Counted from the stretch's first letter, positions 35,944 through 51,540 are shown. The stretch: 64,000 bases of DNA from Thermodesulfobacteriota bacterium (GCA_965243595.1 OZ251569.1:1025177-1089176), one strand, 5' to 3'. The notes: generated from the letters alone by a model not told the origin. Numbers and translations are program-made.

Positions 35944-36885
35944 ATGTCCGGAAAGTTCGACGCTGTGCTCATGATCGGATACGGCGCCCCGGAAAGAAGG
36001 GAGGATGTGGTTCCCTTTCTCCGCAGGGTCGCGGGACCGAGGCCCATACCCGAGGAGCGGCTCCGCGAAGTGGCTTCGCACTACGAGATGTTCGACGGAA
36101 AATCTCCGCTCAACGAATTTACCCGCAGGCAGGCCGCGAAGCTCGGGAAGTTCCTGGCGCGGAGGGGACGCGACCTTCCGGTCTACATAGGAATGAGAAA
36201 CTGGCGCCCGTTCATAAGGGACGAGCTCGAGCGCATGCGCCGGGACGGCGTGAGCAGGGCGGTCGGTCTCATAATGGCCATATACCGCTGCGACGCGAGC
36301 TGGGAGAGATACATGAGGGACGTGGCCGAGGCCCGCGACGACCTGGGAATGGAGCTTCGGGTCGAGTACGTCCCCCCGCTTTTCGACCATCCGCTTTTCG
36401 TGAAGACGTCGGCCGACAGGGTGAGGGAGAGCATGCGCAGGGTTCCTGCCCGGAATCTCGCCACCACCATGCTGGTCTTCACCGCTCACAGCATTCCGCG
36501 GGAAATGTCGGATTCGTCTCCCTACATGTCCCAGTTCGAGACCTCCGCGCGGCTCGTGGCGCGAAGCGCCGGATGCGAAAAATGGATGACGGCCTACCAG
36601 AGCGCGAGCGGCTCCGCGGGCGAGCGGTGGCTCGGGCCCGACATATGCGACGTCGTGAGGAAACTGGCGTCCGAGGGATTTACCGACGTGGTGGTTCAGC
36701 CGATCGGGTTTCTCTGCGATCATATCGAGGTGCTTTTCGACATAGGAGTCGAGGCGAGCGAGGCCGCGGGCGAAGCCGGAATCAGGCTTCACAGGGCGGA
36801 GACGGTGAACGACTCCGACGGCTACGTCGAGGCTCTCTGCGACGGCGTGCTCGGGATTGTGGATTCGCGAGGCTCCGGGCGGTGA
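35944..36885 (+). CDS. hemH: Ferrochelatase
   Basis: DAVLMIGYGAPE...FLRRV... N-terminus, 313 aa. It follows hemE and precedes hemY. Confidence 0.9.
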   Translation: MSGKFDAVLMIGYGAPERREDVVPFLRRVAGPRPIPEERLREVASHYEMFDGKSPLNEFTRRQAAKLGKFLARRGRDLPVYIGMRNWRPFIRDELERMRRDGVSRAVGLIMAIYRCDASWERYMRDVAEARDDLGMELRVEYVPPLFDHPLFVKTSADRVRESMRRVPARNLATTMLVFTAHSIPREMSDSSPYMSQFETSARLVARSAGCEKWMTAYQSASGSAGERWLGPDICDVVRKLASEGFTDVVVQPIGFLCDHIEVLFDIGVEASEAAGEAGIRLHRAETVNDSDGYVEALCDGVLGIVDSRGSGR

Positions 36886-37021
36886 CGGGACGGACCCGGA
36901 GCGGACAATGCTTCTGGAATTCAACCGCGAAGGCTCGCTTGTGAAAATCCGGTCGGATGAGTCTTGACGGGCTTCTTACGGCCCGAGGCGCAACGTTGAA
37001 GGGAAAGGCGGACGACCCGGT

Positions 37022-38452
37022 ATGAAAGTCGCGATTGTCGGAGCTGGCGTTTCGGGTCTGTCCTGCGCCCACTACATGAGGAAGTTTTTCAGAGATTCCT
37101 CCACTCCTCTCGAGCTGGTTCTTTTCGAATCCTCTGGGCGTGCGGGCGGAGTCTTCGATACCGTGAAGACGGGGGGCACGGTTCTCGAGCTGGGTCCCGA
37201 TTCCTTCATAACGTCCAAGCCCTGGGCCCTGGATCTCGCGAGGGATCTCGGTCTCGGGAATTCGCTTCTGGGGGTGGGAGACGGCCCCAGGACCACCTTC
37301 GTCTACAAGGGAGGGCGTCTCCGGCGGCTTCCCGAAGGTTTTTTCATCATGTCCCCTTCGAAACTTTTTCCCTTTCTGCGTTCCGGGCTTTTCAGCGTAC
37401 GGGCGAAACTCAGGGTTCTTCTCGAGCCCCTCGTCCCGCGCGGAGGCGGAGAAGACGAAAGCGTTTCCGGCTTTGTGACCAGAAGATTCGGAAAGGAAAT
37501 GTTCGACACCGTCGCCCAGCCCGTTCTGGGCGGAATCTACATGACCGACGCGGAAAAACTGAGCCTTGGCGCCACCATGCCGCAGTTTCTGGAGATGGAG
37601 AGGGACAAAGGAAGCGTTCTTACGAGTCTTCTTCGCAATCCTCCCACGTCCCGCGGGGAAAGCGGGGCCAGGTACGGACTTTTCCTGACGCCCGCCGGAG
37701 GAATGTCGGTCATTACGGAAAAACTTCTCGAGAGCGCCGCGTTCGCCAAGTGCCACTTCGGAACCCGGGTGTCGGCGGTCGCGGAATCGGAGGGAAAATG
37801 GCTGGTGGTCTCCGGCACGGGAACGCGGGAGGAGTTCGACGCCGTCGCGCTGGCCGTCCCGGCCGCCGCGGCCTCTTCGCTCCTCTCGGATGTCGCCCCG
37901 GACATCTCGCAGGGACTCTCCCGCATCGAATACTCCTCTTCGGTCGTCGCCAGTCTCGTTTTCGACGAGAGGGATTTTTCGGGTCTTCCCGACGGTTTCG
38001 GAATCATAGTTCCCTCGACCGAGGGAATGAACCTCGCGGCCTGTTCGCTCTACAGCAACAAGTTCCCCGCCAAGTGCGAAAGCGGCAAGGTGGTGGTGAG
38101 GGGTTTTCTCGGGGGCGAGGGCAATTCCGGCGTCGCGGACTGGAGCGACGAGAAAGTAGAGACCGTTCTGGGAGAGGAACTTCGCGGGATTTTCGGCGAC
38201 ACCAGGGCGGAGAAAATTATCGTGAAGAGGTATCCGGAATCGATGCCGCTTTTTCGCGTCGGCCACGCCCGCATCATGAGGGACATCATGGACGGATTCT
38301 CTCGGCGCGGGGGACTTTCTCTCTGCGGGGCGGCATGCCTCGGGGTCGGGATACCGGACTGCGTGCGGTCGGGAGAGTTGTCCGCCCGAAAGATTCACGC
38401 GGATTTGACCGGAGGCGGCGAGAGCGTCCATCCTTCGGGAAAATCATCATGA
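37022..38452 (+). CDS. hemY: FAD-dependent protoporphyrinogen/coproporphyrinogen oxidase (HemY/CgoX family)
   Basis: KVAIVGAGVSGLSCAHYM dinucleotide-binding motif; 476 aa. Confidence 0.85.
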   Translation: MKVAIVGAGVSGLSCAHYMRKFFRDSSTPLELVLFESSGRAGGVFDTVKTGGTVLELGPDSFITSKPWALDLARDLGLGNSLLGVGDGPRTTFVYKGGRLRRLPEGFFIMSPSKLFPFLRSGLFSVRAKLRVLLEPLVPRGGGEDESVSGFVTRRFGKEMFDTVAQPVLGGIYMTDAEKLSLGATMPQFLEMERDKGSVLTSLLRNPPTSRGESGARYGLFLTPAGGMSVITEKLLESAAFAKCHFGTRVSAVAESEGKWLVVSGTGTREEFDAVALAVPAAAASSLLSDVAPDISQGLSRIEYSSSVVASLVFDERDFSGLPDGFGIIVPSTEGMNLAACSLYSNKFPAKCESGKVVVRGFLGGEGNSGVADWSDEKVETVLGEELRGIFGDTRAEKIIVKRYPESMPLFRVGHARIMRDIMDGFSRRGGLSLCGAACLGVGIPDCVRSGELSARKIHADLTGGGESVHPSGKSS

Positions 38453-38700
38453 TTCTTAATCTTTGGCCGCTTTCGGAAGAGAGGCAACCGGTTTCCGCCG
38501 GGGAAATGAGTTTTTTCCTCCTTCGGACGCTCCGGCGGAGAGGGTCGGAACTACAGGGCCGGAAGTCGTTTGAACATGGGTATGGCGATTGAATGCTGGC
38601 GACGGGAACTTCGGGACAGCACCCCGAACACGAACTCCCGCTAGAGAACTCACCCGGCAGGATTTGAGCCGGTCCGTCCGGTTACGCTTTCGGCATTGCA
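38440..38700 (+). pseudogene. Remnant of a cassette 3' end (tail-coding region plus the conserved downstream sequence) directly after hemY
   Basis: 38450-38500 (CTTTGGCCGCTTTCGGAAGAGAGGCAACCGGTTTCCGCCGG) aligns to the FFGRFRKRGRRFPP-coding ends of the cassettes. 38500-38660 aligns to the conserved post-cassette sequence, including the degenerate autotransporter 3'-end remnant. Confidence 0.5.
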
Positions 38701-38788
38701 GAAACGGGTTTTTCTGCATCTTCGCGGGATGTTACACGCGGAATTTCTCTCGACGCCAAGGTTAAAATACGTTTGCGATTCCGCAAAT

Positions 38789-38798
38789 GGGGGGGGGG
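38789..38798. repeat. Poly-G homopolymer tract, 10 nt, 19 bp upstream of the cassette A -35
   Basis: GCAAATGGGGGGGGGGTAAACTCC. The same arrangement recurs at 41333-41343 (11 G), 43970-43979 (10 G) and 46566-46575 (10 G). Confidence 0.9.
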
Positions 38799-38816
38799 TA
38801 AACTCCTAATAAATTC

Positions 38817-38846
38817 TTGACAGCGCGCCTGGAAACATATTATAGT
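38817..38846 (+). promoter_or_regulatory. Sigma70-type promoter of cassette A (TTGACA-N18-TATAGT)
   Basis: Perfect -35 TTGACA at 38817-38822 and -10 TATAGT at 38841-38846. An SD GGGAGA and an ATG at 38882 follow. Confidence 0.6.
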
Positions 38847-38881
38847 TTTCCTGCATTGCAGACAGTGACGGGAGAATAGAA

Positions 38882-39205
38882 ATGGAATACGAAGCGAAGT
38901 CATACGCGGAGAGACCGTTCTCGGAGATTGAGAAGCGAACTGCGGTTTCGGTTCGGAAAGACTTTTGCGAAGCGAGGCGCTCGGGTTCTTTATCGTTTTC
39001 CGGAGCCGTCGGGTCGGAGTCGTTCGTTCCGAACGCCCTCCGTTTCGAAGAAGTTGCGGACATGAGAGTCGAAGCGCGGACTTCCCGCGTAATACCCCCC
39101 CCCCCTGTTCCAATCTGGAACACGCTTAGGATTTCCCGGGTTTCCTGTTCGGGCTTTTCTTCTCGTTCTGGCCTTGGCCGCGGGAGTTTCCTCTTTCCCG
39201 TCTGA
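38882..39205 (+). other. Cassette A 5' leader ORF (conserved N-terminal extension MEYEAKS...VIPPPP), out of frame with the gene body at the poly-C tract
   Basis: Strong SD plus ATG. About 90% identical to the in-frame N-termini of cassettes C and D. After the 11-C tract it reads in the wrong frame and stops at 39205. Confidence 0.5.
39095..39105. repeat. Poly-C tract, 11 nt, in the cassette A 5' coding region (encodes PPP; frame-determining)
   Basis: AATACCCCCCCCCCCTGTTCC. The paralogs carry 9 C (41640-41648), 13 C (44237-44249) and 10 C (46872-46881). The 10-C and 13-C copies are in frame; the 11-C and 9-C copies are not. Confidence 0.9.
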
Positions 39206-40931
39206 TGTTTCCGCGCAGAACCGAAATTTGTTTCAGACTCCAGGTGCTGGGCAGCAGATAAGCGGTGTTTCCAATAGCGCCATAATCCTAGCCATATTGG
39301 GTTCGAAGAGCATCACCCTCGGGGCTACGCATAATTTTACCTGGCAAGTGTATGAAATTTACGCCTGTGCCAAAACCGAGACGCCGACAAGCAACGCCGT
39401 CTCCTACGTGTCGTCGGGATGTACATCACTTGGTTCACCTACTACCGTAACCAATGCCAATGTGAGCTTCACCGTGACCCAAACCATGATTGACAACGGA
39501 GGGGTTGTCATCGTGGCGATACGAAAAACTGTTAACGAACTTCGTTTCGGCCAGTGGGTTCCGCTTACCCCGCCCATAACTGTGAGTCAGAGCGGGACGC
39601 TCTCGCTTGTGGAGGGCGGAAGCGGGACGTACACGGTGAGGCTCAATGTGCAGCCCACGGCCGCCGTCACCATACGCGTGGCGAGCAACAACGCGGGCGT
39701 TGCGGTCAAGGCGGGTTCGAATCCGGCCGGGGCAAGCCAGGACCTTACGTTCGAGGCGAACGACGATAACGGCAAGATATGGAGCACGGCGCAGACGGTG
39801 ACGGTCGTGGCGCTTTCCGACGACAATCTGCTCGACGAGAGGGCGATTCTGTCGCACGATGCGTCAAGCGGCAGCGCGCCGGAGTACTCCGGCACCACAG
39901 GCAGGGTGAACGTGAACGTTACGGACGACGACTATCCCGGTCTCACGATAACCGGGGCGACGGCGTCGGAGAGCGAGGAGACGCTTGATTTCACGGTGAG
40001 GCTGAGCATGGCGAGCAGTCGCCGCGTGACGGTGCCCTGGACGGTGATTGCGGCCGGTCCGGACGCGGGGACGGCGACTCCCGGGACGGCTGGCAGCGGG
40101 GACTACGACCATTCGAGCGCGAGGAGCGGGACGCTTGTTTTCTACGAGGGGTCGCCTCTGACGCGGGTCATATCGGTGCCGATAAACGACGATTCGGTGT
40201 TGGAAGGAGACGAGACGGTGAAGGTGTCTCTGGGAACTCCTGTTCCCGGCGACGTGCGCGTTTCGGGTTCGGGGGTAGCCACGGGCACCATAGTGGACGA
40301 CGACGAGAGGACGGTGGTCGGCGCGACGTCGGGAGAGTTTTCGCAGGGAGGCACTATGGTGACGGTGGATTCGAGGCTTCCCGAGAACACTGGTCTCGAG
40401 GTGGTACTGCCTACGGAGCTTGAGAGCGGAGGGGAGGCGATAGAGGAGTTGGTCGTCACCCTGCGGGAGGCTGACGAGGACGTGGAGATAGACCCTGATC
40501 TTTTCGGATACACTGGAGACGCCGCGGACCACGTGCTGGTGGACGTGGACGTTTCCCCTGCGCCGGATGCCGCCGTGAGGATATGTCTTCCGGTGACGGA
40601 GGAGCTTCGCACGGCGGCGGGAGAGCGGAGGAGGCTTTACCTGATAAGGTTCTCCGGGGGGACATGGGAGGAGCTCTCTTCGACTGTAAGGAGAGAAAAG
40701 GTGTGCGCGGACACGAGCGGATTTTCTCCATTCGCGGTGGTGTACGAGCTGATGAACATGGGCTCGGGCAATGGAAGTTCTGGAAGCGGTGGTGGCGGGT
40801 GCGCGATTTCGGGTGAGAATCGGTTTGCCTCGCCGGGGGCATGGTTTTCCTCGCCGGTGCTGCCGGCTGTGCTACTGATGCCTCTTCTGTTTTTCGGACG
40901 CTTTCGGAAGAAAGGCAGACAGTTTCTGTAG
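39174..40931 (+). CDS. Surface protein cassette A (body): signal peptide, variable N-terminal domain, two Calx-beta domains, conserved two-Cys module, C-terminal sorting tail. Apparently phase-OFF relative to its ATG leader.
   Basis: The frame continues upstream to the poly-C tract and encodes a signal peptide (RAFLLVLALAAGVSSFPSDVSA|Q). Calx-beta DETVKVSLGT... and LDFTVRLS.... The tail is SGGGGCAISGENRFASPGAW-[hydrophobic helix]-FFGRFRKKGRQFL. Confidence 0.75.
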   Translation: MAAGVSSFPSDVSAQNRNLFQTPGAGQQISGVSNSAIILAILGSKSITLGATHNFTWQVYEIYACAKTETPTSNAVSYVSSGCTSLGSPTTVTNANVSFTVTQTMIDNGGVVIVAIRKTVNELRFGQWVPLTPPITVSQSGTLSLVEGGSGTYTVRLNVQPTAAVTIRVASNNAGVAVKAGSNPAGASQDLTFEANDDNGKIWSTAQTVTVVALSDDNLLDERAILSHDASSGSAPEYSGTTGRVNVNVTDDDYPGLTITGATASESEETLDFTVRLSMASSRRVTVPWTVIAAGPDAGTATPGTAGSGDYDHSSARSGTLVFYEGSPLTRVISVPINDDSVLEGDETVKVSLGTPVPGDVRVSGSGVATGTIVDDDERTVVGATSGEFSQGGTMVTVDSRLPENTGLEVVLPTELESGGEAIEELVVTLREADEDVEIDPDLFGYTGDAADHVLVDVDVSPAPDAAVRICLPVTEELRTAAGERRRLYLIRFSGGTWEELSSTVRREKVCADTSGFSPFAVVYELMNMGSGNGSSGSGGGGCAISGENRFASPGAWFSSPVLPAVLLMPLLFFGRFRKKGRQFL

Positions 40932-41361
40932 CGTAGGTGGAAAGGAGTCTTTTCCCCCTTTGACTGACGCTCCGGCGGAGACAGTTGGAACTACAGGGGC
41001 AGGGAGCCGTTTGAGCGTGGACGGGATGTTCGATGTGTCTCTCAAAGCCCGGCGTGAGGTCAGCGCGGGCGAACCCGAGCACTAACTCATCCCTTCAGGG
41101 CGGGCTCAACTGGCAGAATTTGAGCTGGCTGCAACCCATTATTCTCTCTGGCTTGCGCGACGCCTGTGTATCGGGCGGGAATGTTCCTTGACCGTCGGGT
41201 CTTTGAGATTTCCGCTCTGTCCGCGTCGGCTCTCGACATTGCGAAAACGGGGTCTTCATGTATCTTCGGGTGACGTGGCGCACGGAGGTTCTCTCGACGT
41301 CAAGATTAAGATACTCCTGCAATTTCGCAAATGGGGGGGGGGGTAAACTCCTAATAAATTC

Positions 41362-41391
41362 TTGACAGCGCACCTGGAAACATATTATAGT
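41362..41391 (+). promoter_or_regulatory. Sigma70-type promoter of cassette B (TTGACA-N18-TATAGT)
   Basis: Same architecture as cassette A. Leader ATG at 41427. Confidence 0.6.
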
Positions 41392-41426
41392 TTTCCTATA
41401 TTGCAGACAACGACGGGAGGATAGAA

Positions 41427-41663
41427 ATGGAATACGAAGCGAAGTCATCGGCGGAGAAACCGTCCTCGGAGCTTGAGAAGCAAATTGCGGTTTCGGTTCG
41501 GAAAGACTTTTGCGAAGCGAGGCGCTCGGGCTCTTTGTCGTTCTCCGGTGCCGGCGGGTCGGAGTCGTCCGGTCCGAACGCCCTCCACGGCGAAGAAGTT
41601 GCGGACGTGAAAGTCGAAGCGCAGAGCGCCCGCGTAATACCCCCCCCCTCTATTCCAATCTAG
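41427..41663 (+). other. Cassette B leader ORF, frameshifted at the 9-C tract
   Basis: MEYEAKSSAEKPSSELEKQIAVSVRKDFCEARRSGS... ends shortly after the poly-C tract. The signal-peptide segment (41694-41760) is in a third frame relative to the body. Confidence 0.5.
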
Positions 41664-41853
41664 AACACGATTAGGGTTTCCCGGGTTTCCGGCATGGGCT
41701 TTTATTCTCGTCCTGGTCCTGGCCGCGGGAGTTTCCTCTTTCCCGTCCGACGCTTCCGCGCAGAACAGAAATGTTTACTTATTACCGGGGGTCTTCAGTT
41801 GGAGTCCTCTATCCGTTCCCGGTGCCCTTCGAGCCGAGACGGGCCGACAGAGG

Positions 41854-43566
41854 GTGGCGATAGAGTATGCTTCAGAGGGTGGGGGTCAATACTATACCTA
41901 TGGCACACATGGCCTTTACGCCTGTTCCTGGAGCGGGACGCCGACAACCGACGGCCAGACTCCGAACTGCGAGTCTCTTGGAAATGCAAACAACAACAGG
42001 TGGAGGCGGCTTCAGCCCAAGGACTTTGAAGTGACCCAGACCATGGTCGACAACGGAGGATTCGTTCTCTTGATGAGGGAGCATGGCCCCCAATTTTATC
42101 GAAGGGTCATTGCCTTCTGGGTTCCGCTGTACGGTCTGGACGTGAGTCCTGGCGGGGGGCTTTCGCTTGAGGAGGGAGAAAGCGGGACGTACATGGTGAA
42201 GCTCAGAAGCTGGCCCGCGCGCAACTACCATACCGCTTCGGGTCCTGAGCTGACCAAGACGGACGAAGCCGTCACGATACGCGTGGTGAGCAACAACCCG
42301 GGCGTCGTGGTCAAGGAGGGAGAAGAACTTAGGTTCGAGGCGAACGACGATGACGGCAAGATATGGAGCACGGCGCAGACGGTGACGGTGGAGTCCGTTT
42401 CCGACGACAATTCGCTCGACGAGAGGGCGGCTCTGTCGTTCGAGGTGTCAAGCGACAGCCCTTCGGAGTATTCCTGGATTGCCGGCGACGACAGGTTGAA
42501 TGTGAACGCGAACGTTATGGACGACGACTATCCCGGTCTCACGATAACCGGGGCGACGGCGTCGGAGAGCGATGAGACGCTCGATTTCACGGTGAAGCTG
42601 AGCACGACCAGCAGTCGCCGTGTGACGGTGGACTGGACGGTGATTACTGACGGAGCGGACGCGGGGACGGCGACGCCCGGGACGGCTGACAGCGGGGATT
42701 ACGACTACTGGAGCACGGTGGGAGGGACGCTTGTCTTTTCCGAGGGGTCGCCTCTGACGCGTGTCATATCGGTGCCGATAAACGACGATTCGGTGTTGGA
42801 AGGAGACGAGACGGTGAAGGTGTCTTTGGGAACTCCGAGTCCGGGCGACGTGCGCGTTTCGGGTTCTGGGGTGGCCACGGGCACCATAGTGGACGACGAC
42901 GAGAGGACTGTGGTCGGAGCGGCGTCGGGAGAGTTTTCGCAGGGAGACACCAGGGTGACTGTGGATTCGAGGCTTCCGGAGGACACGGGGCTCGAGGTGG
43001 TTCTGCCTGCGGAGCTTGAGCGGGGCGGGGAGGCGATAGGAGGTCTGGTCGTCACCCTGCGGGAGGCGGACGCGGACGTGGAGATAGACGAAGGTCTTTT
43101 CGGATACACTGGAGACGACGCGGACCACGTGCTGGTGGACGTGGACGTTTCCCCGGTGCCGGACGCCGCCGTGAGGATATGCCTTCCGGTGACGGAGGGA
43201 CTTCGCATGGCGGCGGGAGAGCGGAGGCTTTACCTGATAAGGTTCTCCGGAGGGTCGTGGGAGAGGCTTTCCTCGACCGTGGAAGGGGAGATGGTGTGCG
43301 CGGACTCAGGCGGATTTTCTCCTTTCGCCGTGGTGTACGAGCGGATGAACTCGGTCTCGGGAAGCGACGGCCGGACTCCGTCTTCCCCGAATGAGATGAA
43401 CTCGGGCCCGGGGAGCGGTGGCGGCGGATGCGCGATTTCGGGTGAGAATCGGTTCGCCTCGCCTGCGGCATGGTCTTCCTCGCCGGCGCTCTTGGCAATG
43501 CTGCTGATACCTCTTTTGTTTTTCGGACGCTTTCGGAAGAGGAGGCAGACAGCTTCTGTAGCGTAG
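41854..43566 (+). CDS. Surface protein cassette B (body), possibly a phase-OFF or decaying copy
   Basis: Same domain order and the same tail ...GSGGGGCAISGENRFASPAAW...LLFFGRFRKRRQTASVA. The leader, signal peptide and body are in three different frames, which means at least two frameshifts. Confidence 0.65.
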   Translation: MAIEYASEGGGQYYTYGTHGLYACSWSGTPTTDGQTPNCESLGNANNNRWRRLQPKDFEVTQTMVDNGGFVLLMREHGPQFYRRVIAFWVPLYGLDVSPGGGLSLEEGESGTYMVKLRSWPARNYHTASGPELTKTDEAVTIRVVSNNPGVVVKEGEELRFEANDDDGKIWSTAQTVTVESVSDDNSLDERAALSFEVSSDSPSEYSWIAGDDRLNVNANVMDDDYPGLTITGATASESDETLDFTVKLSTTSSRRVTVDWTVITDGADAGTATPGTADSGDYDYWSTVGGTLVFSEGSPLTRVISVPINDDSVLEGDETVKVSLGTPSPGDVRVSGSGVATGTIVDDDERTVVGAASGEFSQGDTRVTVDSRLPEDTGLEVVLPAELERGGEAIGGLVVTLREADADVEIDEGLFGYTGDDADHVLVDVDVSPVPDAAVRICLPVTEGLRMAAGERRLYLIRFSGGSWERLSSTVEGEMVCADSGGFSPFAVVYERMNSVSGSDGRTPSSPNEMNSGPGSGGGGCAISGENRFASPAAWSSSPALLAMLLIPLLFFGRFRKRRQTASVA

Positions 43567-43997
43567 GTGGAAAGGAGTTTTTTCCTCCTTTGACTGACAC
43601 TCCGGCGGGGACGGTCGGTCGGAACTACAGGGGCAGGGAGCCGTTTGAGCATGGACGGGATGTTCAACGTGTCTCTCAAAGCCCGGCGCACTGAGGTCAG
43701 CACGGGCGACCCGAGCGCTAATTCATCCCTCCAAGGTGGGCTCAACTCAACTGGCAGGATTTGAGCTGGCTGCGACCCATTCTCTCTGACTTGCGCAACC
43801 CCTGCTTATAGGGCGGGAATGTTCCTTGACCGTCGGGTCTTTGAGACTTATGCTCTGTCCGCGTCGGCTCTCGACATTGCGAAAACGGGGTCTTCTGTAT
43901 CTTCGGGTGATGTGGCGCGCGGAGTTTCTCTCGACGTCAAGATTAAAATACTCCCGCAATTCCGCAAATGGGGGGGGGGTAAACTCCTAATAAATTC

Positions 43998-44027
43998 TTG
44001 ACAGCGCACCTGGAAACATATTATAGT
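43998..44027 (+). promoter_or_regulatory. Sigma70-type promoter of cassette C (TTGACA-N18-TATAGT)
   Basis: -35 at 43998-44003, -10 at 44022-44027, SD GGGAGGA, ATG at 44063. Confidence 0.6.
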
Positions 44028-44062
44028 TTTCCTATATTGCAGACAACGACGGGAGGATAGAA

Positions 44063-46078
44063 ATGGAATACGGAGCGAAGTCATCGGCGGAGAAACCGTC
44101 CTCGGAGCTTGAGAAGCGAGGCTCTCGGGCTCTTTATCGTTTTCCAGAGGTCGGGTCGGAGTCGTCCGGTCCGAACGCCCTCCGCGGCGAAGAAGTTTCG
44201 GACATGAAAGTCGAAGCGCTGACCGCCTGCGTAATACCCCCCCCCCCCCTGTTTCAACTTAGAACATGTGCTGGGACTCTCCGCGTACTGACGTCGGCTT
44301 TTCTTTTTGTTCTGACCCTTGCCGTGGGAGTCTTGTTTCTTTCGCTGCAGTCTTTTGCCCAAGAGGTGCAGACATGGAAAAGACCCGGCGACGGCCGGGC
44401 CAATAACTGGTCAACACTAACAACAAAGCTCTTACCTGTGACAGGAACACAGACCGTTAGGTTGCGAAACAACACTTTTGGTCAGTATAGGGCTCACGCA
44501 ATTTACGCGTGCGCATGGGTCAGTTTGGAGCCACCACACGCCACCAACGCTCCATCGTCCGGCTGTACGAAAATTTATAATGCCATAACTGCAGGCTCAA
44601 ACACCTTTGAAGTCAATCATTCCGTCTCCATAACCCAAGCCATGATCAACAACGGGAAAGTCGTCTTGGTGGCACGATATGAGTATTCGCCGATGGTAAA
44701 TATGTGGGCGGTGGGAATTCCATTGGTGCCTAGGGCCATAATAGTGAGTCAGTCGACGGCGATTGGTCTTACGGAGGGGAGCACTTCTACCTACACTGTG
44801 AAGCTTGAGGCGCAGCCTGCGGACGATGTCACGATACGCGTGGCGAGCAACAACGCGGGCGTCGCGGTCAAGGCGGGTTCGAATCCGGCCGGGGCGAGAC
44901 AGGACATTACGTTCAACTCCACCACATGGAATACGCCGCAGACGGTGACGGTGGAGGCGCTTTCCGACGACAATCTGCTCGATGAGAGGGCGATTCTGTC
45001 GCACGAGGTGTTAAGCGGCAGCGCACCGGAGTACTCCGGTGCCGCTGGCAGGGTAAACGTAAACGTTATGGATGACGACTATCCCGGTCTCATGATAACC
45101 GGCGCATCGGCGTCGGAGAGCGATGAGACGCTTGATTTCACGGTGAAGCTGAGTGCGGCGAGCAGTCGCCGCGTGGCAGTGGACTGGACGGTGATTGCGG
45201 CCGGTCCGGACGCGGGGACGGCGACGCCCGGGACGGCGGGCAGCGGGGACTACGACCATTCGAGCGCGAGGAGCGGGACGCTTGTTTTCTACGAAGGGTC
45301 GCCGCTGACGCGAACCATACCGGTGCCGATAAACGACGATTCGGTGTTGGAAGGAGACGAGACGGTGAAGGTGTCTTTGGGAACTCCCAGTCCCGGGGAC
45401 GTGCGCGTTTCGGGTTCTGGGGTGGCCACGGGCACCATAGTGGACGACGACGAGAGGACGGTGGTTGGCGTGACGTCGGGAGAGTTTTCGCAGGGAGACA
45501 CCAAGGTGACGGTGGATTCCAGGCTTCCCGAGGACACGGGGCTTGAGGTGGTTCTGCCTACGGAGCTTGAGAGCGGCGGGGAGGCGATAGAGGAGCTCAC
45601 GGTGACTCTGGGGCCTTCGGACGTGGAGATAGACGCTGACCTTTTCGGATACACGGGAGACGCCGCGGACCACATGCTGGTGGACGTGGATGTTTCCCCC
45701 GTGCCGGACGCCGCCGTGAGGATATGCCTTCCGGTGACGGAGGGGCTTCGCATGGAGGCGGGAGAGCGGAGGCTTTACCTGATAAGATTCTCCGGGGGGA
45801 CATGGGAGGAGCTTTCCTCGACCGTGGAGGGGGAGATGGTGTGCGCGGACACGAGCGGATTTTCTCCATTCGCGGTGGTGTACGAGCGGATGACGAACAT
45901 GGGCTCGGGCAGTGGAAGCTCTGGAAGCGGTGGCGACGGCGGATGTGCTATTTCGGGTGAGAATCGGTTCGCGTCGCCTACGGCATGGTTTTCCTCGCCG
46001 ATGTTCTTGGTACTGCTGCCTCTTTTGTTTTTCGGCCGCTTTCGGAAGAGATGCAGACGGTTTCCGCACGGGGAATGA
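44063..46078 (+). CDS. Surface protein cassette C, intact and in frame through the 13-C tract (phase-ON)
   Basis: 671 aa. Leader, PPPP, signal peptide (LTSAFLFVLTLAVGVLFLSLQSFA|QE), variable domain, Calx-beta domains, conserved module, and tail GGDGGCAISGENRFASPTAW...LLFFGRFRKRCRRFPHGE. Confidence 0.8.
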   Translation: MEYGAKSSAEKPSSELEKRGSRALYRFPEVGSESSGPNALRGEEVSDMKVEALTACVIPPPPLFQLRTCAGTLRVLTSAFLFVLTLAVGVLFLSLQSFAQEVQTWKRPGDGRANNWSTLTTKLLPVTGTQTVRLRNNTFGQYRAHAIYACAWVSLEPPHATNAPSSGCTKIYNAITAGSNTFEVNHSVSITQAMINNGKVVLVARYEYSPMVNMWAVGIPLVPRAIIVSQSTAIGLTEGSTSTYTVKLEAQPADDVTIRVASNNAGVAVKAGSNPAGARQDITFNSTTWNTPQTVTVEALSDDNLLDERAILSHEVLSGSAPEYSGAAGRVNVNVMDDDYPGLMITGASASESDETLDFTVKLSAASSRRVAVDWTVIAAGPDAGTATPGTAGSGDYDHSSARSGTLVFYEGSPLTRTIPVPINDDSVLEGDETVKVSLGTPSPGDVRVSGSGVATGTIVDDDERTVVGVTSGEFSQGDTKVTVDSRLPEDTGLEVVLPTELESGGEAIEELTVTLGPSDVEIDADLFGYTGDAADHMLVDVDVSPVPDAAVRICLPVTEGLRMEAGERRLYLIRFSGGTWEELSSTVEGEMVCADTSGFSPFAVVYERMTNMGSGSGSSGSGGDGGCAISGENRFASPTAWFSSPMFLVLLPLLFFGRFRKRCRRFPHGE

Positions 46079-46593
46079 GCTTTTTTCTCTATAGGATTAG
46101 ACTTTCCGGCCGAAAACAACGAGATGCAACGGCAATGCCCGTTGCTGCCAAGAGCAACCAGATTCGGCGTTTTCCGTATGGCGCCGTAGGAGTGAAACTT
46201 TGCGGAGAGGTCGTTCCCTTGTTTTTTTCCGCCGATATGCAACTGACCGAAAAACACGAAAACGGCATTTTGCGGTGTTTCGCGAAAAATGAAACCGCCG
46301 AACTCGGGAAGGAATGCACGGAATCGGCACCCATGTCGTCGGAAAACGGCCCGGGGCGGGGCGACGCACAAAGTAAGTCGTAGGGGATTCCGTTCGGAGA
46401 AAAAGGGCGTTTGACAGCGCGGCCTGAAAGGGCGGGCCAACTGGTATAGGAGTAGCGGTGTCGCTGGCCGGTTCTCTCGCGCAACGCCTGCGTAATCTTC
46501 GCGGGACGTTGCGCGCGGAATTTCTCTCGACATCAAGATTAAAGTACGCTTGCGATTTCGCAAACGGGGGGGGGGTAAATTCCTAACAAATTC

Positions 46594-46623
46594 TTGACAG
46601 CGCGCCTGGAAACGTATTATAAT
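46594..46623 (+). promoter_or_regulatory. Sigma70-type promoter of cassette D (perfect TTGACA-N18-TATAAT)
   Basis: -35 at 46594-46599, -10 at 46618-46623, ATG at 46659. Confidence 0.65.
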
Positions 46624-46658
46624 CTTCCCATCTTGAAGACAGTGACGGGAGGGTAAAA

Positions 46659-48797
46659 ATGGAATACGGAACGAAGTCATCGGCGGAGAAACCGTCCTCG
46701 GAGCTTGAGAAGCGAATTGCGGTTTCGGTTCGGAAAGATTTTTGCGAAGCGAGTCTCCCGGGCTCTTTATCGTTTTCCGGCGCCGGCGGGTCGGAGTTGT
46801 CCGGTCCGAACGCCCTTCGCGGCGAGGAAGTCGCGGACATGAAAGTCGAAGCGCGGACCGCCCGCGTAATACCCCCCCCCCTCTATTTTAATCTAGAACA
46901 TGCGCGGGCTTTCCCGGGGTTCCTGGCGCGGGTTTTCCTTCTCGTTGTGGTCCTGGCCGCGGGAGTTTCGTATTTCCCGTCCGATGCTTCCGCACAGGAC
47001 AGAGGTGATTATTTACAGGCTCGAGGCGGGGCGGGATTTTACAACAATGTTTTAGGAACTTGGGGGACCTATCGAGCCCGTCCGGGCAGACAGGCCTTCA
47101 GGATGGCATGCGAGGTCCTCGAAGGTTATCAGTTATACACCTTTTACGCCTGTCCCTGGAACGCAAAACCTACAAGTAAAGCCGCCGCCGACAACGTGTC
47201 GGGATGCTCATTTATTGCTTCGGGAATTCGCGGACGAGACTGGTCGCGAGACTTTGACCTGACCCAGGCCATGGTCGACAACGGAGGATTCTATGCAGTG
47301 ATGTATAGACCGTTCTCATTTTTGACCGACATTGCCTTCTGGGTTCCGTTGCATGGTCTGGATGTGAGTCCGAGCGGGGGGCTTTCGCTTGTGGAGGGAG
47401 GAAGCGGGACGTACGAGGTGAAACTCATGAGTTGGCCCTTGCGCTGGAGATGGTCTCCGCATTATGATACTCAGCTGACCAAGACGGACGAGGCCGTCAC
47501 GATACGCGTGGCGAGCAACAACCCGAGCGTCGTGGTCAAGGAGGGAGGGGAACTTAGGTTCGAGGCGAACGACGATAACGACAGGATATGGAGCACGGCG
47601 CAGACGGTGAGGGTGGAGGCTCTTTCCGACGACAACCTGCTTGACGAGAGGGCGACTCTGTCGTTCGAGGTGTCAAGCGACAGCCTTTCGGAGTATTCCT
47701 GGATTGCCGGCGACGACAGGTGGAATGTGAAAGCGAACGTTATGGACGACGACTATCCCGGTCTCGCGATAACCGGGGCGACGGCGTCGGAGAGCGATGA
47801 GGCTCTCGATTTCACGGTGAAGCTGAGCACGACCAGCAGTCGCCGGGTGACGGTGGACTGGACGGTGATTGCGGAGGGAGCGGACGCGGGGACGGCGACG
47901 CCCGGGACGGCTGACAGCGGGGATTACGACTACTGGAGCACGGTGGGAGGGACGCTTGTCTTTTCCGAGGGGTCGCCTCTGACGCGTGTCATATCGGTGC
48001 CGATAAACGACGATTCGGTGTTGGAAGGAGACGAGACGGTGAAGGTGTCTTTGGGAACTCCCAGTCCTGGCGACGTGCGCGTTTCGGGTTCCGGGGTGGC
48101 CACGGGCACCATAGTGGACGACGACGAGAGGACGGTGGTAGGCGCGGCGTCGGGAGAGTTTTCGCAGGGAGAGACCAGGGTGACGGTGGATTCGAGGCTT
48201 CCCGAGGACACGGGGCTCGAGGTGGTTCTGCCTACGGAGCTTGAGCGTGGCGGGGAAGCGATAGGGGGTCTGGTCGTCACCCTGCGGGAGGCTGACGCGG
48301 ACGTGGAGATAGACGATGACCTTTTCGGATACACGGGAGACGACGCGGACCACGTGCTGGTGGATGTGGACGTTTCCCCGGTGCCGGATGCGGCCGTGAG
48401 GATATGCCTTCCGGTGACGGAGGAGCTTCGCATGGCGGCGGGAGAGCGGAGGCTTTACCTGATAAGGTTCTCCGGCGGGACGTGGGAGAGGCTTTCCTCG
48501 ACCGTGGAAGGGGAGATGGTGTGCGCGTCCACGAGCGGATTTTCTCCTTTCGCGGTGGTGTACGAGCGGATGAGCTCGGGAAGCGACGGCCGGACTCCGT
48601 CTTCCCCGAATGAGATGAACTCGGGTACGGGAAGCGGTGGTGGCGGATGCGCGATTTCGGGTGAGAATCGGTTCTCATCGCCGGTGCTGCTGGCGATGCT
48701 GCTGGGGATGTTGCTTATGCCTCTTTTGTTCTTCGGACGCTTTCGAAAGAGAGGTAGACGGTTTCCGCCGGAGAAGCAGGTTGTTCCTCCTCGATAA
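46659..48797 (+). CDS. Surface protein cassette D, intact and in frame through the 10-C tract (phase-ON)
   Basis: 712 aa with the same architecture. Tail GSGGGGCAISGENRFSSPVLLAMLLGMLLMPLLFFGRFRKRGRRFPPEKQVVPPR. Confidence 0.8.
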   Translation: MEYGTKSSAEKPSSELEKRIAVSVRKDFCEASLPGSLSFSGAGGSELSGPNALRGEEVADMKVEARTARVIPPPLYFNLEHARAFPGFLARVFLLVVVLAAGVSYFPSDASAQDRGDYLQARGGAGFYNNVLGTWGTYRARPGRQAFRMACEVLEGYQLYTFYACPWNAKPTSKAAADNVSGCSFIASGIRGRDWSRDFDLTQAMVDNGGFYAVMYRPFSFLTDIAFWVPLHGLDVSPSGGLSLVEGGSGTYEVKLMSWPLRWRWSPHYDTQLTKTDEAVTIRVASNNPSVVVKEGGELRFEANDDNDRIWSTAQTVRVEALSDDNLLDERATLSFEVSSDSLSEYSWIAGDDRWNVKANVMDDDYPGLAITGATASESDEALDFTVKLSTTSSRRVTVDWTVIAEGADAGTATPGTADSGDYDYWSTVGGTLVFSEGSPLTRVISVPINDDSVLEGDETVKVSLGTPSPGDVRVSGSGVATGTIVDDDERTVVGAASGEFSQGETRVTVDSRLPEDTGLEVVLPTELERGGEAIGGLVVTLREADADVEIDDDLFGYTGDDADHVLVDVDVSPVPDAAVRICLPVTEELRMAAGERRLYLIRFSGGTWERLSSTVEGEMVCASTSGFSPFAVVYERMSSGSDGRTPSSPNEMNSGTGSGGGGCAISGENRFSSPVLLAMLLGMLLMPLLFFGRFRKRGRRFPPEKQVVPPR

Positions 48798-48966
48798 GGT
48801 CTTCTCTCTGCGGTAAATCACGTTTTCGGACCTCCGAAGCCGGGAATTTGCGCGGGTGCCCCTGGATAACGGCTTTGCCTAATGCTTTGCGGAAAAAACC
48901 TGACCTTCACGGTTCCGGGATTCAAAAAATTTTTTCCTGTGGCATAATTGTAAGCTGAACGTTACT

Positions 48967-49038
48967 GCCGATGTAGCTCAGCGGTAGAGCAGCTCACTCG
49001 TAATGAGCAGGTCAGGGGTTCAAATCCCCTCGTCGGCT
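48967..49038 (+). tRNA. tRNA-Thr (anticodon CGU)
   Basis: Manual fold: acceptor GCCGATG/CGTCGGC, D arm GCTC-AGCGGTA-GAGC, anticodon stem GCTCA/TGAGC with loop CTCGTAA, T arm AGGGG-TTCAAAT-CCCCT. No encoded CCA. Confidence 0.85.
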
Positions 49039-49049
49039 GTAATGTTTCC

Positions 49050-50291
49050 TTACCGGAAGATTTTCGAGAAGTATTCCCTGAATTTTCCGCTCGTCAGGCT
49101 GGTGTGTCTCGAGAGGTTTCTCAGGTTCCTGGCGTTTTCCAGGTCCTCGGGAGTTATCTTGATCATGTATTTCTGCGAAACCTCGTAGGCCTCGGTGTTC
49201 GTGTCGACGTACCTTACCTTCATGCTGTTCGTTTTCCTGTCGACGAGTCTCGAGAAAGGAGTCGCCTGCATTTTTCCCCTCTTCAGGTACACGAGCGCCC
49301 CGTCGCCTCCGCCGAGCAGGTACTTGACCGCGCAGTAGCCGAGCTTGCGCGTGTAGTCCACGTCGAACGGAATTGGGTCGGCCGAGCGAAGCTCGTAGCC
49401 TATCCTCTTGTGCACGATTTCCGCGCCCACGCCTTTTTCCGAGAGCTTCTCGCCGAGGGTCTCCTTGAGAAGGTGTCCGAAGTTCGTGTCCAGATACCTT
49501 ATTCTTCCCATGTTGTCCCTGTCCATGATTCCGAGATCCCCGGGGTTTATCTTGTCGAGCATCCCCTCGGCCATTACGGCCACTCCGTATTCCCTTCCCA
49601 TGCTCATTCTCTTGATTACCGAGCCCTCGAGAATCGCTATGACCTTCGCGAGAGACACCTTCTTCTCCCGAAACTCCTCGGGTATCACCGTGATGGTGGC
49701 TCCGGAGGACTGCCCGATTCCCAGGGCCAGATGCCCCGTTCTCCTGCCCATGGTTATGACCACGAACCACCTGCCGGTCGTCTTCGCCTCTTCCATTATG
49801 TGGTTTATTATCTTCGCCCCCACGTCCCTGGCGGTCTCGAAGCCGAAGGTGGGTATGTAGTCGGGAAGGGCTATGTTGTTGTCTATGGTTTTCGGGACGT
49901 GCGCTATCTTCACTTTTCCCCCGAAATGCTCGTGAAGGGTTCTGGCCAGGAACATCGTTCCGTCTCCCCCTATGGTTATCAGTCCCCCTATGCCGAGTTT
50001 CCCGATCGAGGAAACGGTGTTGGCGAAGCTCTCCTCGTCCGCGAGGGGGCTTTTTCTGGATATTCCGATAACGGAACCGCCGTCGGTGTGAATCCTGGAG
50101 GTGTTCTGAATGTCGAGGTCGACCGTTTTCGACGTGTCTCCGGCGGAAATCCACTTGAAGCCGTCGAGAATGCCCACCACCTTTCTGCCCCTGTTTCTGG
50201 CCTCTATGGTGGCCGAGCTTATGACCCCGTTTATTCCCGGCGCCGGTCCTCCGGCCGCTATGATTCCGATCTTGTCGGCTTTTTCAGCCAT
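49050..50291 (-). CDS. 6-phosphofructokinase; its length suggests the PPi-dependent type
   Basis: GIIAAGGPAPGINGVI and TIGGDGT motifs; 413 aa from the MAEKADK ATG. Confidence 0.85.
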   Translation of the reverse strand: MAEKADKIGIIAAGGPAPGINGVISSATIEARNRGRKVVGILDGFKWISAGDTSKTVDLDIQNTSRIHTDGGSVIGISRKSPLADEESFANTVSSIGKLGIGGLITIGGDGTMFLARTLHEHFGGKVKIAHVPKTIDNNIALPDYIPTFGFETARDVGAKIINHIMEEAKTTGRWFVVITMGRRTGHLALGIGQSSGATITVIPEEFREKKVSLAKVIAILEGSVIKRMSMGREYGVAVMAEGMLDKINPGDLGIMDRDNMGRIRYLDTNFGHLLKETLGEKLSEKGVGAEIVHKRIGYELRSADPIPFDVDYTRKLGYCAVKYLLGGGDGALVYLKRGKMQATPFSRLVDRKTNSMKVRYVDTNTEAYEVSQKYMIKITPEDLENARNLRNLSRHTSLTSGKFREYFSKIFR

Positions 50292-50982
50292 TCTGCCTCT
50301 CCGCCCTGTATTTTCTGCGGCGGTAGGCTTCGGTGCGCACGTAGCTGCCCGCGAAAGCGAGACCGCCCGCCAGCCCCCCGATATGAGCCCAGAACGCCAC
50401 TCCTCCCGTGCCGCCAATATAACCGATTCCGCCGAGGAACTGAAAGACGAACCAGACCATTACGAACAGGTATGCCTTTATGCGGACGAACTGCAAGACG
50501 ATCAGGACCACGAGAAGCGTGAGTATGTTCGACCTCGGGAAAAAGAGCATGTACGCCCCCAGCACTCCGGAGATCGCCCCGCTCGCGCCTATCGTCGGGA
50601 TTTCGGAGTGAATGTTGAGAAGCGTGTGCAGAAAAGCCGTGGCGAGCCCGCAGGTCAGGTAGAAAAGCAGGTATCCGAAATGGCCCAGCCTGTCCTCGAC
50701 GCCCCTTCCGAATATGTGCAGAAAGATCATGTTTCCGCCCGCGTGCAGCCAGCCTCCGTGAACGAACATCGAGGCGAAAAACACCGACGTTCTCTCAAGC
50801 GTCCCGTAGGCGTCCGGGGGAAACACCCTGCGGGGGACTAGACCGTACTTGCCGTGGAAGACCTCGAGCGCCGCTCCGTCGAGAGAAAGCGCGTAGGCGA
50901 ACGCTAGCAGGTTCGCGGCGATGAGCGCGTAGTTCACGTAAGGGGCGGTGGCGGTTTTTATTGTGCTTCTAATCGGTATCAT
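50284..50982 (-). CDS. Rhomboid-family intramembrane serine protease (candidate rhombosortase-like processing enzyme)
   Basis: About six transmembrane helices. Catalytic Ser in GASGAISGVLGAY and catalytic His in FWAHIGGLAGG. Conserved FVHGGWLHAGGNMIFL loop-1/TM2 region. The ORF maximum extends to 51090; the start is set at MIPIRS. Confidence 0.75.
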   Translation of the reverse strand: MIPIRSTIKTATAPYVNYALIAANLLAFAYALSLDGAALEVFHGKYGLVPRRVFPPDAYGTLERTSVFFASMFVHGGWLHAGGNMIFLHIFGRGVEDRLGHFGYLLFYLTCGLATAFLHTLLNIHSEIPTIGASGAISGVLGAYMLFFPRSNILTLLVVLIVLQFVRIKAYLFVMVWFVFQFLGGIGYIGGTGGVAFWAHIGGLAGGLAFAGSYVRTEAYRRRKYRAERQNG

Positions 50983-51540
50983 TATCCCGCCAATTATACT
51001 TGAGCCGCGGAAGCGGAAGTACCCGCCCGGGAGTCGAAGAGAGTTGAAAAAGCCCTTGCAGGACGACCTGACCAGGATAAGAACGGACATGAGGAGAAGC
51101 TTCGCGAAAGTTTCTCTCCTCGCGGTGAACGCCGGGCTGTTTGCCGAACCCTGCGCCGAAACGCTCGAAATCCCGGGGAATCTTTCCCCCGAAGAACTTC
51201 TCCGCGAGCTTTCCCGGCTGGGCGTCGGGGTCGTCTTCTACGGCCGGGAGGCTTCCGCCCGCGGGTTTCTTCGCGGGCTTCGGGGAGCGGTAGAGGAAAA
51301 CCGCCATACGGTTCTCGACGAGCCGCGCCCCGGGCGGGACGTCCGGGGAGATGGACCCTGCGCGCTGGTCGGCTGCGAGAAGTCCGACGTCGGTCTTCTC
51401 CGTCCCGGGATCTTTTCCGTCGCTTCCCGAAGCGCGGACCTGTCCCTGAAAATGGTTTCCGACTACGTGTCCAATTTCGACGGGGAGTCCGTCTTCGTGG
51501 AAGTGGGAAACCTGGTGGTCGACTCCAGGAGGGAAGCGCG

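Follow-up and report, generated by a model that had tools for sequence, protein, structure and literature searches.

Frame-setting poly-C tracts mark four tandem Calx-beta genes as probable contingency loci in a probable sponge-associated bacterium

Can the number of residues in a homopolymeric C tract decide which members of a bacterial gene family are translated? This question is raised by a 64-kb stretch of DNA from Thermodesulfobacteriota bacterium (GCA_965243595.1 OZ251569.1:1025177-1089176; hereafter the window), in which four tandem units of ∼2.6 kb, termed cassettes A to D, lie between 38.7 and 48.8 kb. A first-pass annotation of this DNA had proposed that poly-C tracts of 11, 9, 13 and 10 residues set the reading frame of the four genes and vary in length by slipped-strand mispairing. 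The idea of a frame-setting, length-variable tract was supported at every point that could be tested on sequence. With a probability of roughly 0.75, A to D would be contingency loci, operating by slipped-strand mispairing, of a large family of secreted, adhesin-like Calx-beta proteins in a sponge associate that is probably a member of Candidatus Dadabacteria. All tract lengths given here are those of the assembled sequences.

Homopolymers of 8 nucleotides (nt) or longer occur exactly eight times in the window, and all of them lie inside the four cassettes. They stand apart from the remaining runs: apart from the tracts of 9, 10, 11 and 13 nt no C run is longer than 6 nt, apart from those of 10, 10, 10 and 11 nt no G run is longer than 7 nt, and no A or T run exceeds 7 nt. 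Matches to C9/G9 numbered 20, versus 2.46 ± 1.99 in shuffled sequences, none of 100 shuffles reaching 20; a chance origin of the tracts is thus excluded. The poly-C tracts occupy identical columns in an alignment of the four cassettes, and their coordinates and lengths, as first annotated, proved exact on re-checking (Table 1). Each cassette also has a poly-G tract (10, 11, 10 and 10 residues in A to D), which was absent from the original finding. The four poly-C tracts (C11, C9, C13 and C10) all reach the length of at least nine G or C residues that serves as the operational threshold of hypermutability for phase-variable genes of Neisseria (PMC5953494).

The cassettes share one anatomy. From 5′ to 3′ they consist of a conserved segment of ∼100 nt, the poly-G tract, an AT-rich 18 nt (TAAACTCCTAATAAATTC) that separates this tract from the −35 box, a promoter (TTGACA-18-TATAGT or TATAAT, matching the consensus at 11–12 of 12 positions), a 5′ untranslated region (UTR) of ∼30 nt, a leader, the poly-C tract, a linker, a signal peptide and the protein body. 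A Shine–Dalgarno (SD) sequence, GGGAGG or GGGAGA, precedes the ATG of the leader by 7 nt. The leader (MEYxAKS...) is 58–71 codons long and is followed by GTA ATA and then by poly-C; a linker of ∼45 nt connects the tract to a typical Sec-type signal peptide (e.g. ARVFLLVVVLAAGVSYFPSDASA followed by QD). The mature protein, of ∼600 amino acids (aa), comprises a hypervariable N-terminal domain of ∼150–200 aa, beta-sandwich and Calx-beta domains, and a conserved C-terminal module. The distance of ∼215 nt that had been placed between the ATG and the signal peptide is that between the ATG and the tract (213 nt in A, B and D; 174 nt in C, whose leader carries 37-nt and 2-nt deletions relative to the other three), and does not hold as a distance to the signal peptide.

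Reading frames were checked by three-frame translation and by adding or removing 1 or 2 C at the tract in silico. With the 13 C of cassette C and the 10 C of cassette D, leader, signal peptide and body form single open reading frames (ORFs) of 671 and 712 aa, as had been proposed. With the 11 C of A and the 9 C of B the leader ends early, at a stop after 107 codons in A and after 78 in B. The body frames, open over ∼607 codons in A and ∼642 in B, each have an in-frame TAA directly upstream of the tract and lack a start codon of their own, the first ATG, GTG or TTG lying inside or beyond the signal peptide (TTG at 39174, GTG at 41854). ATGs are found just past the tract in C (44268) and D (46900), out of frame and by different offsets. 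No in-frame start codon thus precedes the signal-peptide core, so that in all four cassettes the tract is the sole path from a start codon to the body, in agreement with the earlier proposal. The length that yields the ON state is cassette-specific: 10 or 13 C in A and 8 or 11 C, not 10, in B, because linker indels shift the register in the latter. The division into two ON (C and D) and two OFF copies (A and B) is correct for the DNA as sequenced; it is the weakest part of the first-pass annotation, as the counts may be off by one.

If the tract were irrelevant to translation, either the start would lie downstream of it or the poly-C would form part of a second promoter or of a 5′ UTR. There is a precedent in TP0126 of Treponema pallidum, whose poly-G turned out to lie in the promoter (PMC7864442), and the post-tract ATGs of C and D, a leader devoid of coding signature (see below) and the in-frame Met at the signal-peptide start of P0016, a paralog encoded elsewhere in the genome, could be read in the same way. 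However, in A to D no ATG, GTG or TTG in the body frame precedes the hydrophobic core of the signal peptide, the two post-tract ATGs are in the wrong frame, no promoter-like site is found around the tract, and the upstream SD and ATG are kept even when the 5′ UTR is a different one. This alternative is regarded as extremely improbable.

Tract lengths were then compared over 11 cassettes with DNA (the four of the window plus seven recovered from related loci) and one further length deduced from a protein. In this set poly-C varies from 8 to 13 residues, and the differences are not confined to multiples of three. Type-1 cassettes have 9, 9, 10, 10, 11, 11, 12, 13 and 13 C, and type-2 cassettes 9 and 9; four of the nine type-1 copies are ON and five OFF, both wrong frames being represented. 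G/C runs of at least 8 nt occur only at family cassettes in ∼98 kb of related loci. The tract also differs between strains at an orthologous gene: the orthologs P0011, from the source genome (8 C, deduced from HDTPPYFNLEH), and L003, from another sample (9 C), share a variable domain and are one C apart, a difference that puts the long leader out of frame. Type-2 leaders (L003 9886-10015; L008 16855-16970, minus strand) contain two ATGs in different frames upstream of poly-C, one for the long leader and one, in ATG-ATA, immediately ahead of the tract; a product would therefore be made with two of the three classes of tract length. L008 additionally has a 27-codon upstream ORF ending in ATGA, which overlaps the next start.

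At the protein level, the 2,268,554-bp contig that carries cassette D encodes at least 13 paralogs of it, those outside the window being known as proteins only. Gene calling left six paralogs, A (P0013) and B (P0005) among them, truncated at the N-terminus and devoid of a signal peptide, and gave seven an N-terminal extension that includes PPP(P). These extensions are of three unrelated kinds (MEYxAK..., MEKKxETKLQ... and MESRASF...), and in all of them the proline run stands directly before the signal peptide. A PacBio HiFi-style contig encodes an autotransporter relative with the same arrangement, PPP(P) before a signal peptide. With the leader as query, 28 protein clusters were found that are leader-only ORFs of 77–107 aa ending a few codons past the prolines, in both wrong frames (...PPPSILI, ...PPPPLF and ...PPPPYFNLEHD before the stop). 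OFF copies are favoured in this sample, since an ON copy that sits on a short contig is truncated where the contig ends and is in most cases not recorded.

As contingency loci, the cassettes would work as follows. Each gene would be transcribed from its own near-consensus sigma-70 promoter, and translation would start at the ATG preceded by the strong SD; the ribosome would then read the leader, the PPP or PPPP specified by the tract, and the Sec-type signal peptide and body. As the signal peptide lacks its own start codon, the C count would decide whether the body frame is entered (ON) or a stop is met within 5–35 codons (OFF). Runs of 9–13 C are expected to be prone to slipped-strand mispairing at replication, so each gene should flip stochastically and reversibly. 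A population would consequently display different subsets of at least 13 proteins with variable N-terminal domains. Here we infer slippage within the population, its reversibility and an effect at the protein level.

Several observations weigh against this reading; they concern the tract counts, cassette B, and the leader with its signal peptide. Counts of 9–13 identical bases are error-prone on every sequencing technology, and single ON/OFF calls may therefore be wrong. Were all true tracts in frame, the 9/10/11/13 series would be nothing but homopolymer miscalls. C or G runs of this length are indeed hard for Illumina, Oxford Nanopore (ONT) and even HiFi sequencing, and short-read contigs break at or beside the tracts (L005 begins inside poly-G, L006 right after poly-C). 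Such breaks are explained equally well by the ∼300-nt leader being a multi-copy repeat, which would break short-read assemblies anyway; for the same reason they were discarded as evidence of tract heterogeneity. Independent assemblies, from at least eight samples, repeatedly contain copies that are out of frame, in one wrong frame or the other, and a 9-C tract in this position is also present on the HiFi-style contig. Neighbour genes with C6/G7 runs show no frameshifts, and their lengths match those of their orthologs, which indicates that the assembly is not riddled with frameshifts. An artefact of sequencing is thus considered very unlikely.

L011, found in another sample, is the ortholog of cassette B (217 of 233 aa identical), and both are OFF in the same frame. 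The tract of B reads C9-T-C where L011 has C11; it looks as if a C-to-T change had interrupted a longer tract, and B may be a stabilised OFF allele and not an active switch. Over the 233 codons of the variable domain the ratio of nonsynonymous to synonymous substitution rates (dN/dS) between the two is 0.5–0.75, and the occurrence of 33 substitutions without a stop is not significant. The two cassettes, which have the same variable domain, lie at different chromosomal loci in their respective samples. A shared OFF frame, an interrupted tract, an unconstrained leader and a variable-domain dN/dS not far below 1 could all be expected if the tract were a mutational hotspot devoid of adaptive switching, the OFF copies being young pseudogenes of a recently expanded family. 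Against this, the OFF bodies run for ∼600 codons with neither stops nor further frameshifts, and the conserved half of the body has an excess of variable sites at third codon positions (e.g. 3/3/13 and 4/4/14 at positions 1/2/3), and is thus under purifying selection. The tract has also been kept in different species and with each of the three unrelated leaders, and roughly one copy in two is ON. An easy way to escape the tract would be to gain a start codon at the signal peptide, yet no cassette of the window has done so. Decaying copies at a mutational hotspot are an unlikely explanation.

As to the leader, a signal peptide preceded by ∼85 residues is unusual, and the Met of P0016 mentioned above could bypass the tract. 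The leader frame also lacks a coding signature: its variable sites are spread evenly over codon positions 1/2/3 (16/24/20), and its ratio of nonsynonymous to synonymous polymorphism (pN/pS), 0.77, compares with 0.96 and 0.70 in the other two frames. A functional leader peptide was ruled out on these grounds. Translation of the leader is suggested by the SD and ATG, the open frame and the lack of an alternative start. Although indels have occurred in C (−37 and −2 nt) and in L010 (+1 nt), the frame is open in nine of nine type-1 copies, and SD and ATG are kept in all of them, including L011, which has an unrelated promoter and 5′ UTR and its own SD (GAGGAGGA) before the same ATG. The deletions in the leader of C were not retained as evidence of frame maintenance, since the tract itself could offset any change of frame. 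AlphaFold2 modelled the leader as disordered, with a predicted local distance difference test score (pLDDT) of ∼25–30 over residues 1–87, and a search of the leader against NCBIfam gave no match. These features suggest a translated spacer whose amino-acid sequence would be irrelevant.

The leader RNA has no match in Rfam, and its minimum free energy is no better than that of shuffled sequences (z = +1.19). In a consensus fold of 46630-46905 the SD GGGAGG pairs with the poly-C ∼230 nt downstream; covariation cannot test this pairing because both elements are invariant. The RNA also bears on the possibility of recoding, in which tract length would tune expression, not gate it, through slippage of RNA polymerase or through ribosomes that shift by +1 on CCC-C while stalled at polyproline. 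CCC-C is a +1-prone site that is held in frame by elongation factor P (EF-P) and m1G37, and PPP motifs stall ribosomes; both properties are established knowledge. A, B and L011 would need exactly a +1 ribosomal shift, equivalent to the deletion of one nucleotide. L005 and L010, however, would have to be shifted by −1 or +2, the leader RNA fold showed no stimulatory structure, frameshifting of this kind normally occurs at ∼1% or less, and transcriptional slippage is documented mainly for A/T runs. Recoding is therefore held to be highly improbable as the role of the tract, but it may allow some leaky expression from certain OFF copies.

For mucosal pathogens such as Neisseria, Haemophilus, Campylobacter, Helicobacter and Treponema, homopolymer phase variation is textbook knowledge; the mechanism proposed here is already known, while the host and the gene family are new. 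Campylobacter jejuni has poly-G contingency tracts in adhesin and autotransporter genes, including capA and capB, with many such loci in a small genome; the protein family and the tract position are different in the present case. In Haemophilus influenzae, lic1 and lic2A contain CAAT repeats with alternative in-frame ATGs. The type-2 cassettes L003 and L008 recall lic1 in their two ATGs in different frames and two productive length classes out of three, although the lic1 repeat is a tetranucleotide and theirs a homopolymer; the type-1 cassettes of the window have a single productive frame. The tract of Neisseria pilC lies in the signal-peptide region. As in pilC1/pilC2, lgtA and pglA of Neisseria, a G/C tract stands near the 5′ coding end of a surface-related gene, but here it is upstream of the signal peptide, after an unconstrained leader of ∼70 codons, in a family of at least 13 paralogs from an uncultivated sponge associate that is no pathogen, and switching would be expected by analogy. 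The genic contingency genes of Neisseria carry a G/C homopolymer of 9–20 nt near the 5′ coding end, with ON and OFF states that depend on the frame and arise by slipped-strand mispairing (PMC5953494).

The poly-G tract may add a second level of variation. In eight type-1 copies it ends 17–19 nt upstream of TTGACA, including L011, in which the flanking sequence is unrelated; this corresponds to about −54 to −63, the distal edge of a would-be UP element. G10 is its commonest length, seen in four copies; two copies have G11, and single copies have G9, G13 and at least G14. In L008 an interrupted G run (GGGGTGGGGGGCGGG) replaces it at the same distance. A position next to the promoter and a length polymorphism between copies are marks of promoter-tract phase variation, and both were found. 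By analogy with known systems, the poly-G probably switches transcription on and off or grades it in the manner of a rheostat. Since L011 does not conserve the sequence upstream of the tract, any effect is more likely to be intrinsic, through DNA geometry or structure, than to depend on the spacing to a specific activator site. An invertible promoter bounded by the G and C runs was also considered and rejected, the G-run/C-run pair being the only inverted repeat and all type-1 copies with promoter DNA having one orientation.

Two pathogens offer parallels to this arrangement. In Helicobacter pylori sabA, a promoter T-tract near the −35 box modulates the geometry between RNA polymerase and the UP element, and CT repeats in the 5′ coding region turn this adhesin ON and OFF (PMC4081817). 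The cassettes likewise have two repeats per gene, one just upstream of −35 and one in the 5′ coding region; they differ in that the promoter tract is a poly-G with the AT-rich 18 nt before −35, that the coding repeat is mononucleotide, and that the system is known from sequence alone. In T. pallidum tprE/G/J, tprL and tp0126, poly-G tracts of 7–11 residues, within or beside the promoters of paralogous outer-membrane proteins, control transcription through their length (PMC7864442). Here too a variable poly-G accompanies the promoters of a paralogous surface-protein family, but the tracts of T. pallidum act on transcription only and lie by the transcription start or between −35 and −10, whereas those of the cassettes are upstream of −35 and are joined by a coding tract.

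Tentatively, then, a candidate-phylum symbiont with a beneficial or commensal lifestyle may possess pathogen-style, stochastic two-tier surface variation, with a poly-G rheostat and a poly-C switch on each of at least 13 genes for adhesins with a common Calx-beta core and hypervariable N-terminal domains; this wider view remains doubtful. If it holds, sponge cells or phages would impose an immune-like, frequency-dependent selection on symbiont surfaces, and contingency loci would be general to host association, not only to pathogenesis. If switching is real, a genome of 2.27 Mb spends at least 13 genes on a stochastic Calx-beta surface repertoire, and host recognition or phagocytosis, or else phage predation, would be a strong selective force inside sponges. 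As sponge aggregation and allorecognition factors are Calx-beta proteins (PMC5400394), a variable Calx-beta repertoire in a sponge symbiont is biologically suggestive. No relevant description of phase variation in Dadabacteria or in symbionts of sponges emerged from a literature search. The loci lend themselves to testing with existing metagenomic reads. Gene callers render OFF copies as truncated proteins without a signal peptide plus orphan ORFs of ∼80 aa, which hides the family from secretome analyses.

Table 1. Positions of the cassette features and of other loci in the window, and tract states of the related cassettes
Feature	Coordinates	Strand	Details
A poly-G	38789..38798	+	10 G; 18 nt upstream of −35 box
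A promoter	38817..38846	+	TTGACA-18-TATAGT; 11/12 consensus
A SD	38869-38874		GGGAGA; ATG at 38882
A leader ORF	38882..39205	+	107 aa, through C11 to stop at 39205; OFF; P0202
A poly-C	39095..39105	+	11 C; ON would need 10 or 13 C
A signal peptide and body	39147..40931	+	signal peptide 39147-39215, VRAFLLVLALAAGVSSFPSDVSA; variable N-terminal domain, Calx-beta domain, conserved C-terminal module, GCAISGENRF...LLFFGRFRKK tail
B poly-G	41333..41343	+	11 G; 18 nt upstream of −35 box
B promoter	41362..41391	+	TTGACA-18-TATAGT
B leader ORF	41427..41663	+	78 aa, stop 15 nt past tract; OFF; P0189
B poly-C	41640..41648	+	9 C, then T, C; ON would need 8 or 11 C
B signal peptide and body	41692..43566	+	signal peptide 41692-41760; frame open from 41641
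C poly-G	43970..43979	+	10 G
C promoter	43998..44027	+	TTGACA-18-TATAGT
C single ORF	44063..46078	+	671 aa: leader, PPPP, signal peptide (44279-44359), body; ON; P0009
C poly-C	44237..44249	+	13 C
D poly-G	46566..46575	+	10 G
D promoter	46594..46623	+	TTGACA-18-TATAAT; 12/12 consensus
D single ORF	46659..48797	+	712 aa: leader, PPP, signal peptide (46926-46994), body; ON; P0001
D poly-C	46872..46881	+	10 C, then T, C
A C-terminal tail	40797-40931		
B C-terminal tail	43426-43566		
C C-terminal tail	45941-46078		
D C-terminal tail	48645-48797		
A mosaic segment compared	39900-40931		
B mosaic segment compared	42500-43566		
C mosaic segment compared	45050-46078		
D mosaic segment compared	47700-48797		
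Giant ORF	15-7718	+	at least 2567 aa; runs off left window end
Low-GC island	20429-23066	+	∼49.5% GC vs ∼61% around
hemD-hemE fusion	33731-35935	+	
tRNA-Thr(CGT)	48967-49038		
Rhomboid gene	50284-51090		beside PPi-phosphofructokinase gene
Related cassette L002			type 1; poly-G 10; poly-C 13; ON
Related cassette L004			type 1; poly-G 9; poly-C 10; ON
Related cassette L005			type 1; poly-G at least 14; poly-C 12; OFF
Related cassette L010			type 1; poly-G 11; poly-C 9; OFF
Related cassette L011			type 1; poly-G 13; poly-C 11; OFF
Related cassette L003			type 2; no poly-G; poly-C 9; long leader out of frame
Related cassette L008			type 2, HiFi-style contig; interrupted G run; poly-C 9; ON

The bodies of all four cassettes match Calx-beta (PF03160) with 29.8–35.2 bits, above the Pfam gathering threshold of 27 bits. 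The AlphaFold2 model, poor overall (mean pLDDT 54.5), showed beta-sandwiches at residues 140–490; with this low-confidence model the best Foldseek matches were the CBD12 calcium-binding domains of NCX1/CALX, at low TM-scores (template-modelling scores), and the fold search returned only generic tandem beta-sandwich and Calx-beta matches. The four bodies end in a common tail, in which a Gly-rich/Cys part (GCAISGENRF(A/S)SP) is followed by a hydrophobic, transmembrane helix and by LLFFGRFRK(R/K), and which looks like an unclassified C-terminal sorting or anchor signal. Its scores against JDVT-CTERM (NF033191), 16.4–17.6 bits, are below the cut-off of 27, so the tail does no more than resemble that class of signals. 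The rhomboid gene beside the PPi-phosphofructokinase (PFK) gene was rejected as a rhombosortase partner of the tail (NCBIfam, 11.6 bits vs a cut-off of 84). No match to PF03797, the C-terminal beta-barrel translocator of type Va autotransporters, was found in cassettes A to D.

The bodies have a mosaic structure in the segments compared (Table 1). One variant of the middle and C-terminal part (LTKTDEAVTIRV, WIAGDDR and SGSDGRTPSSPNEMNSG) is common to B and D, a second (SNNAGVAVKAGSNPAGA and NMGSG) to A and C, and the N-terminal domains of all four differ. This pattern suggests recombination or gene conversion among the paralogs.

A giant ORF at the left end of the window, with Calx-beta and fn3 repeats, shares the conserved modules of the cassettes at 41–45% identity and ends in ...QGRLNW, like the autotransporter relative P0019. 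The PF03797 barrel is present in P0019 and is implied for the giant ORF by the shared ending. The giant ORF is probably the ancestral adhesin type of the family, and its shared modules and P0019-like ending make the cassettes look like short derivatives of an autotransporter adhesin in which the barrel has been swapped for a C-terminal anchor.

The PFK encoded next to the array has relatives with 93–99% identity only in sponge-metagenome assemblies of ENA, and its nearest named relatives, at 77–79% identity, are from metagenome-assembled genomes of Candidatus Dadabacteria. The host is thus probably an uncultivated sponge-associated bacterium, and probably belongs to that group. Scans of JGI metagenomes by protein alignment and with the promoter DNA pattern were empty, the family being seen only in the ENA sponge assemblies. 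A scan of GTDB representatives gave a single, unrelated Stappiaceae locus, and look-ups of the exact proteins P0001, P0003 and P0014 had no match. When L008 11387-18130, on a HiFi-style contig of 1.19 Mb, was compared with window positions 35944-50417, hemY and PFK turned out to be direct neighbours in this related genome, without a cassette array; instead, one family member, of the autotransporter type, separates hemH from hemY. The absence of the array from L008 indicates that the four-cassette array beside tRNA-Thr(CGT) is lineage-specific.

Two further features of the window are of note. The low-GC island contains genes for an AccI-type restriction endonuclease and an Eco57I/N6 DNA methyltransferase, and is probably a horizontally acquired restriction-modification system. 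In addition, hemD (uroporphyrinogen-III synthase) and hemE (uroporphyrinogen decarboxylase) are fused in one ORF; L008 carries the same hemD-hemE fusion, of 652 aa, with HEM4 and URO-D domains.

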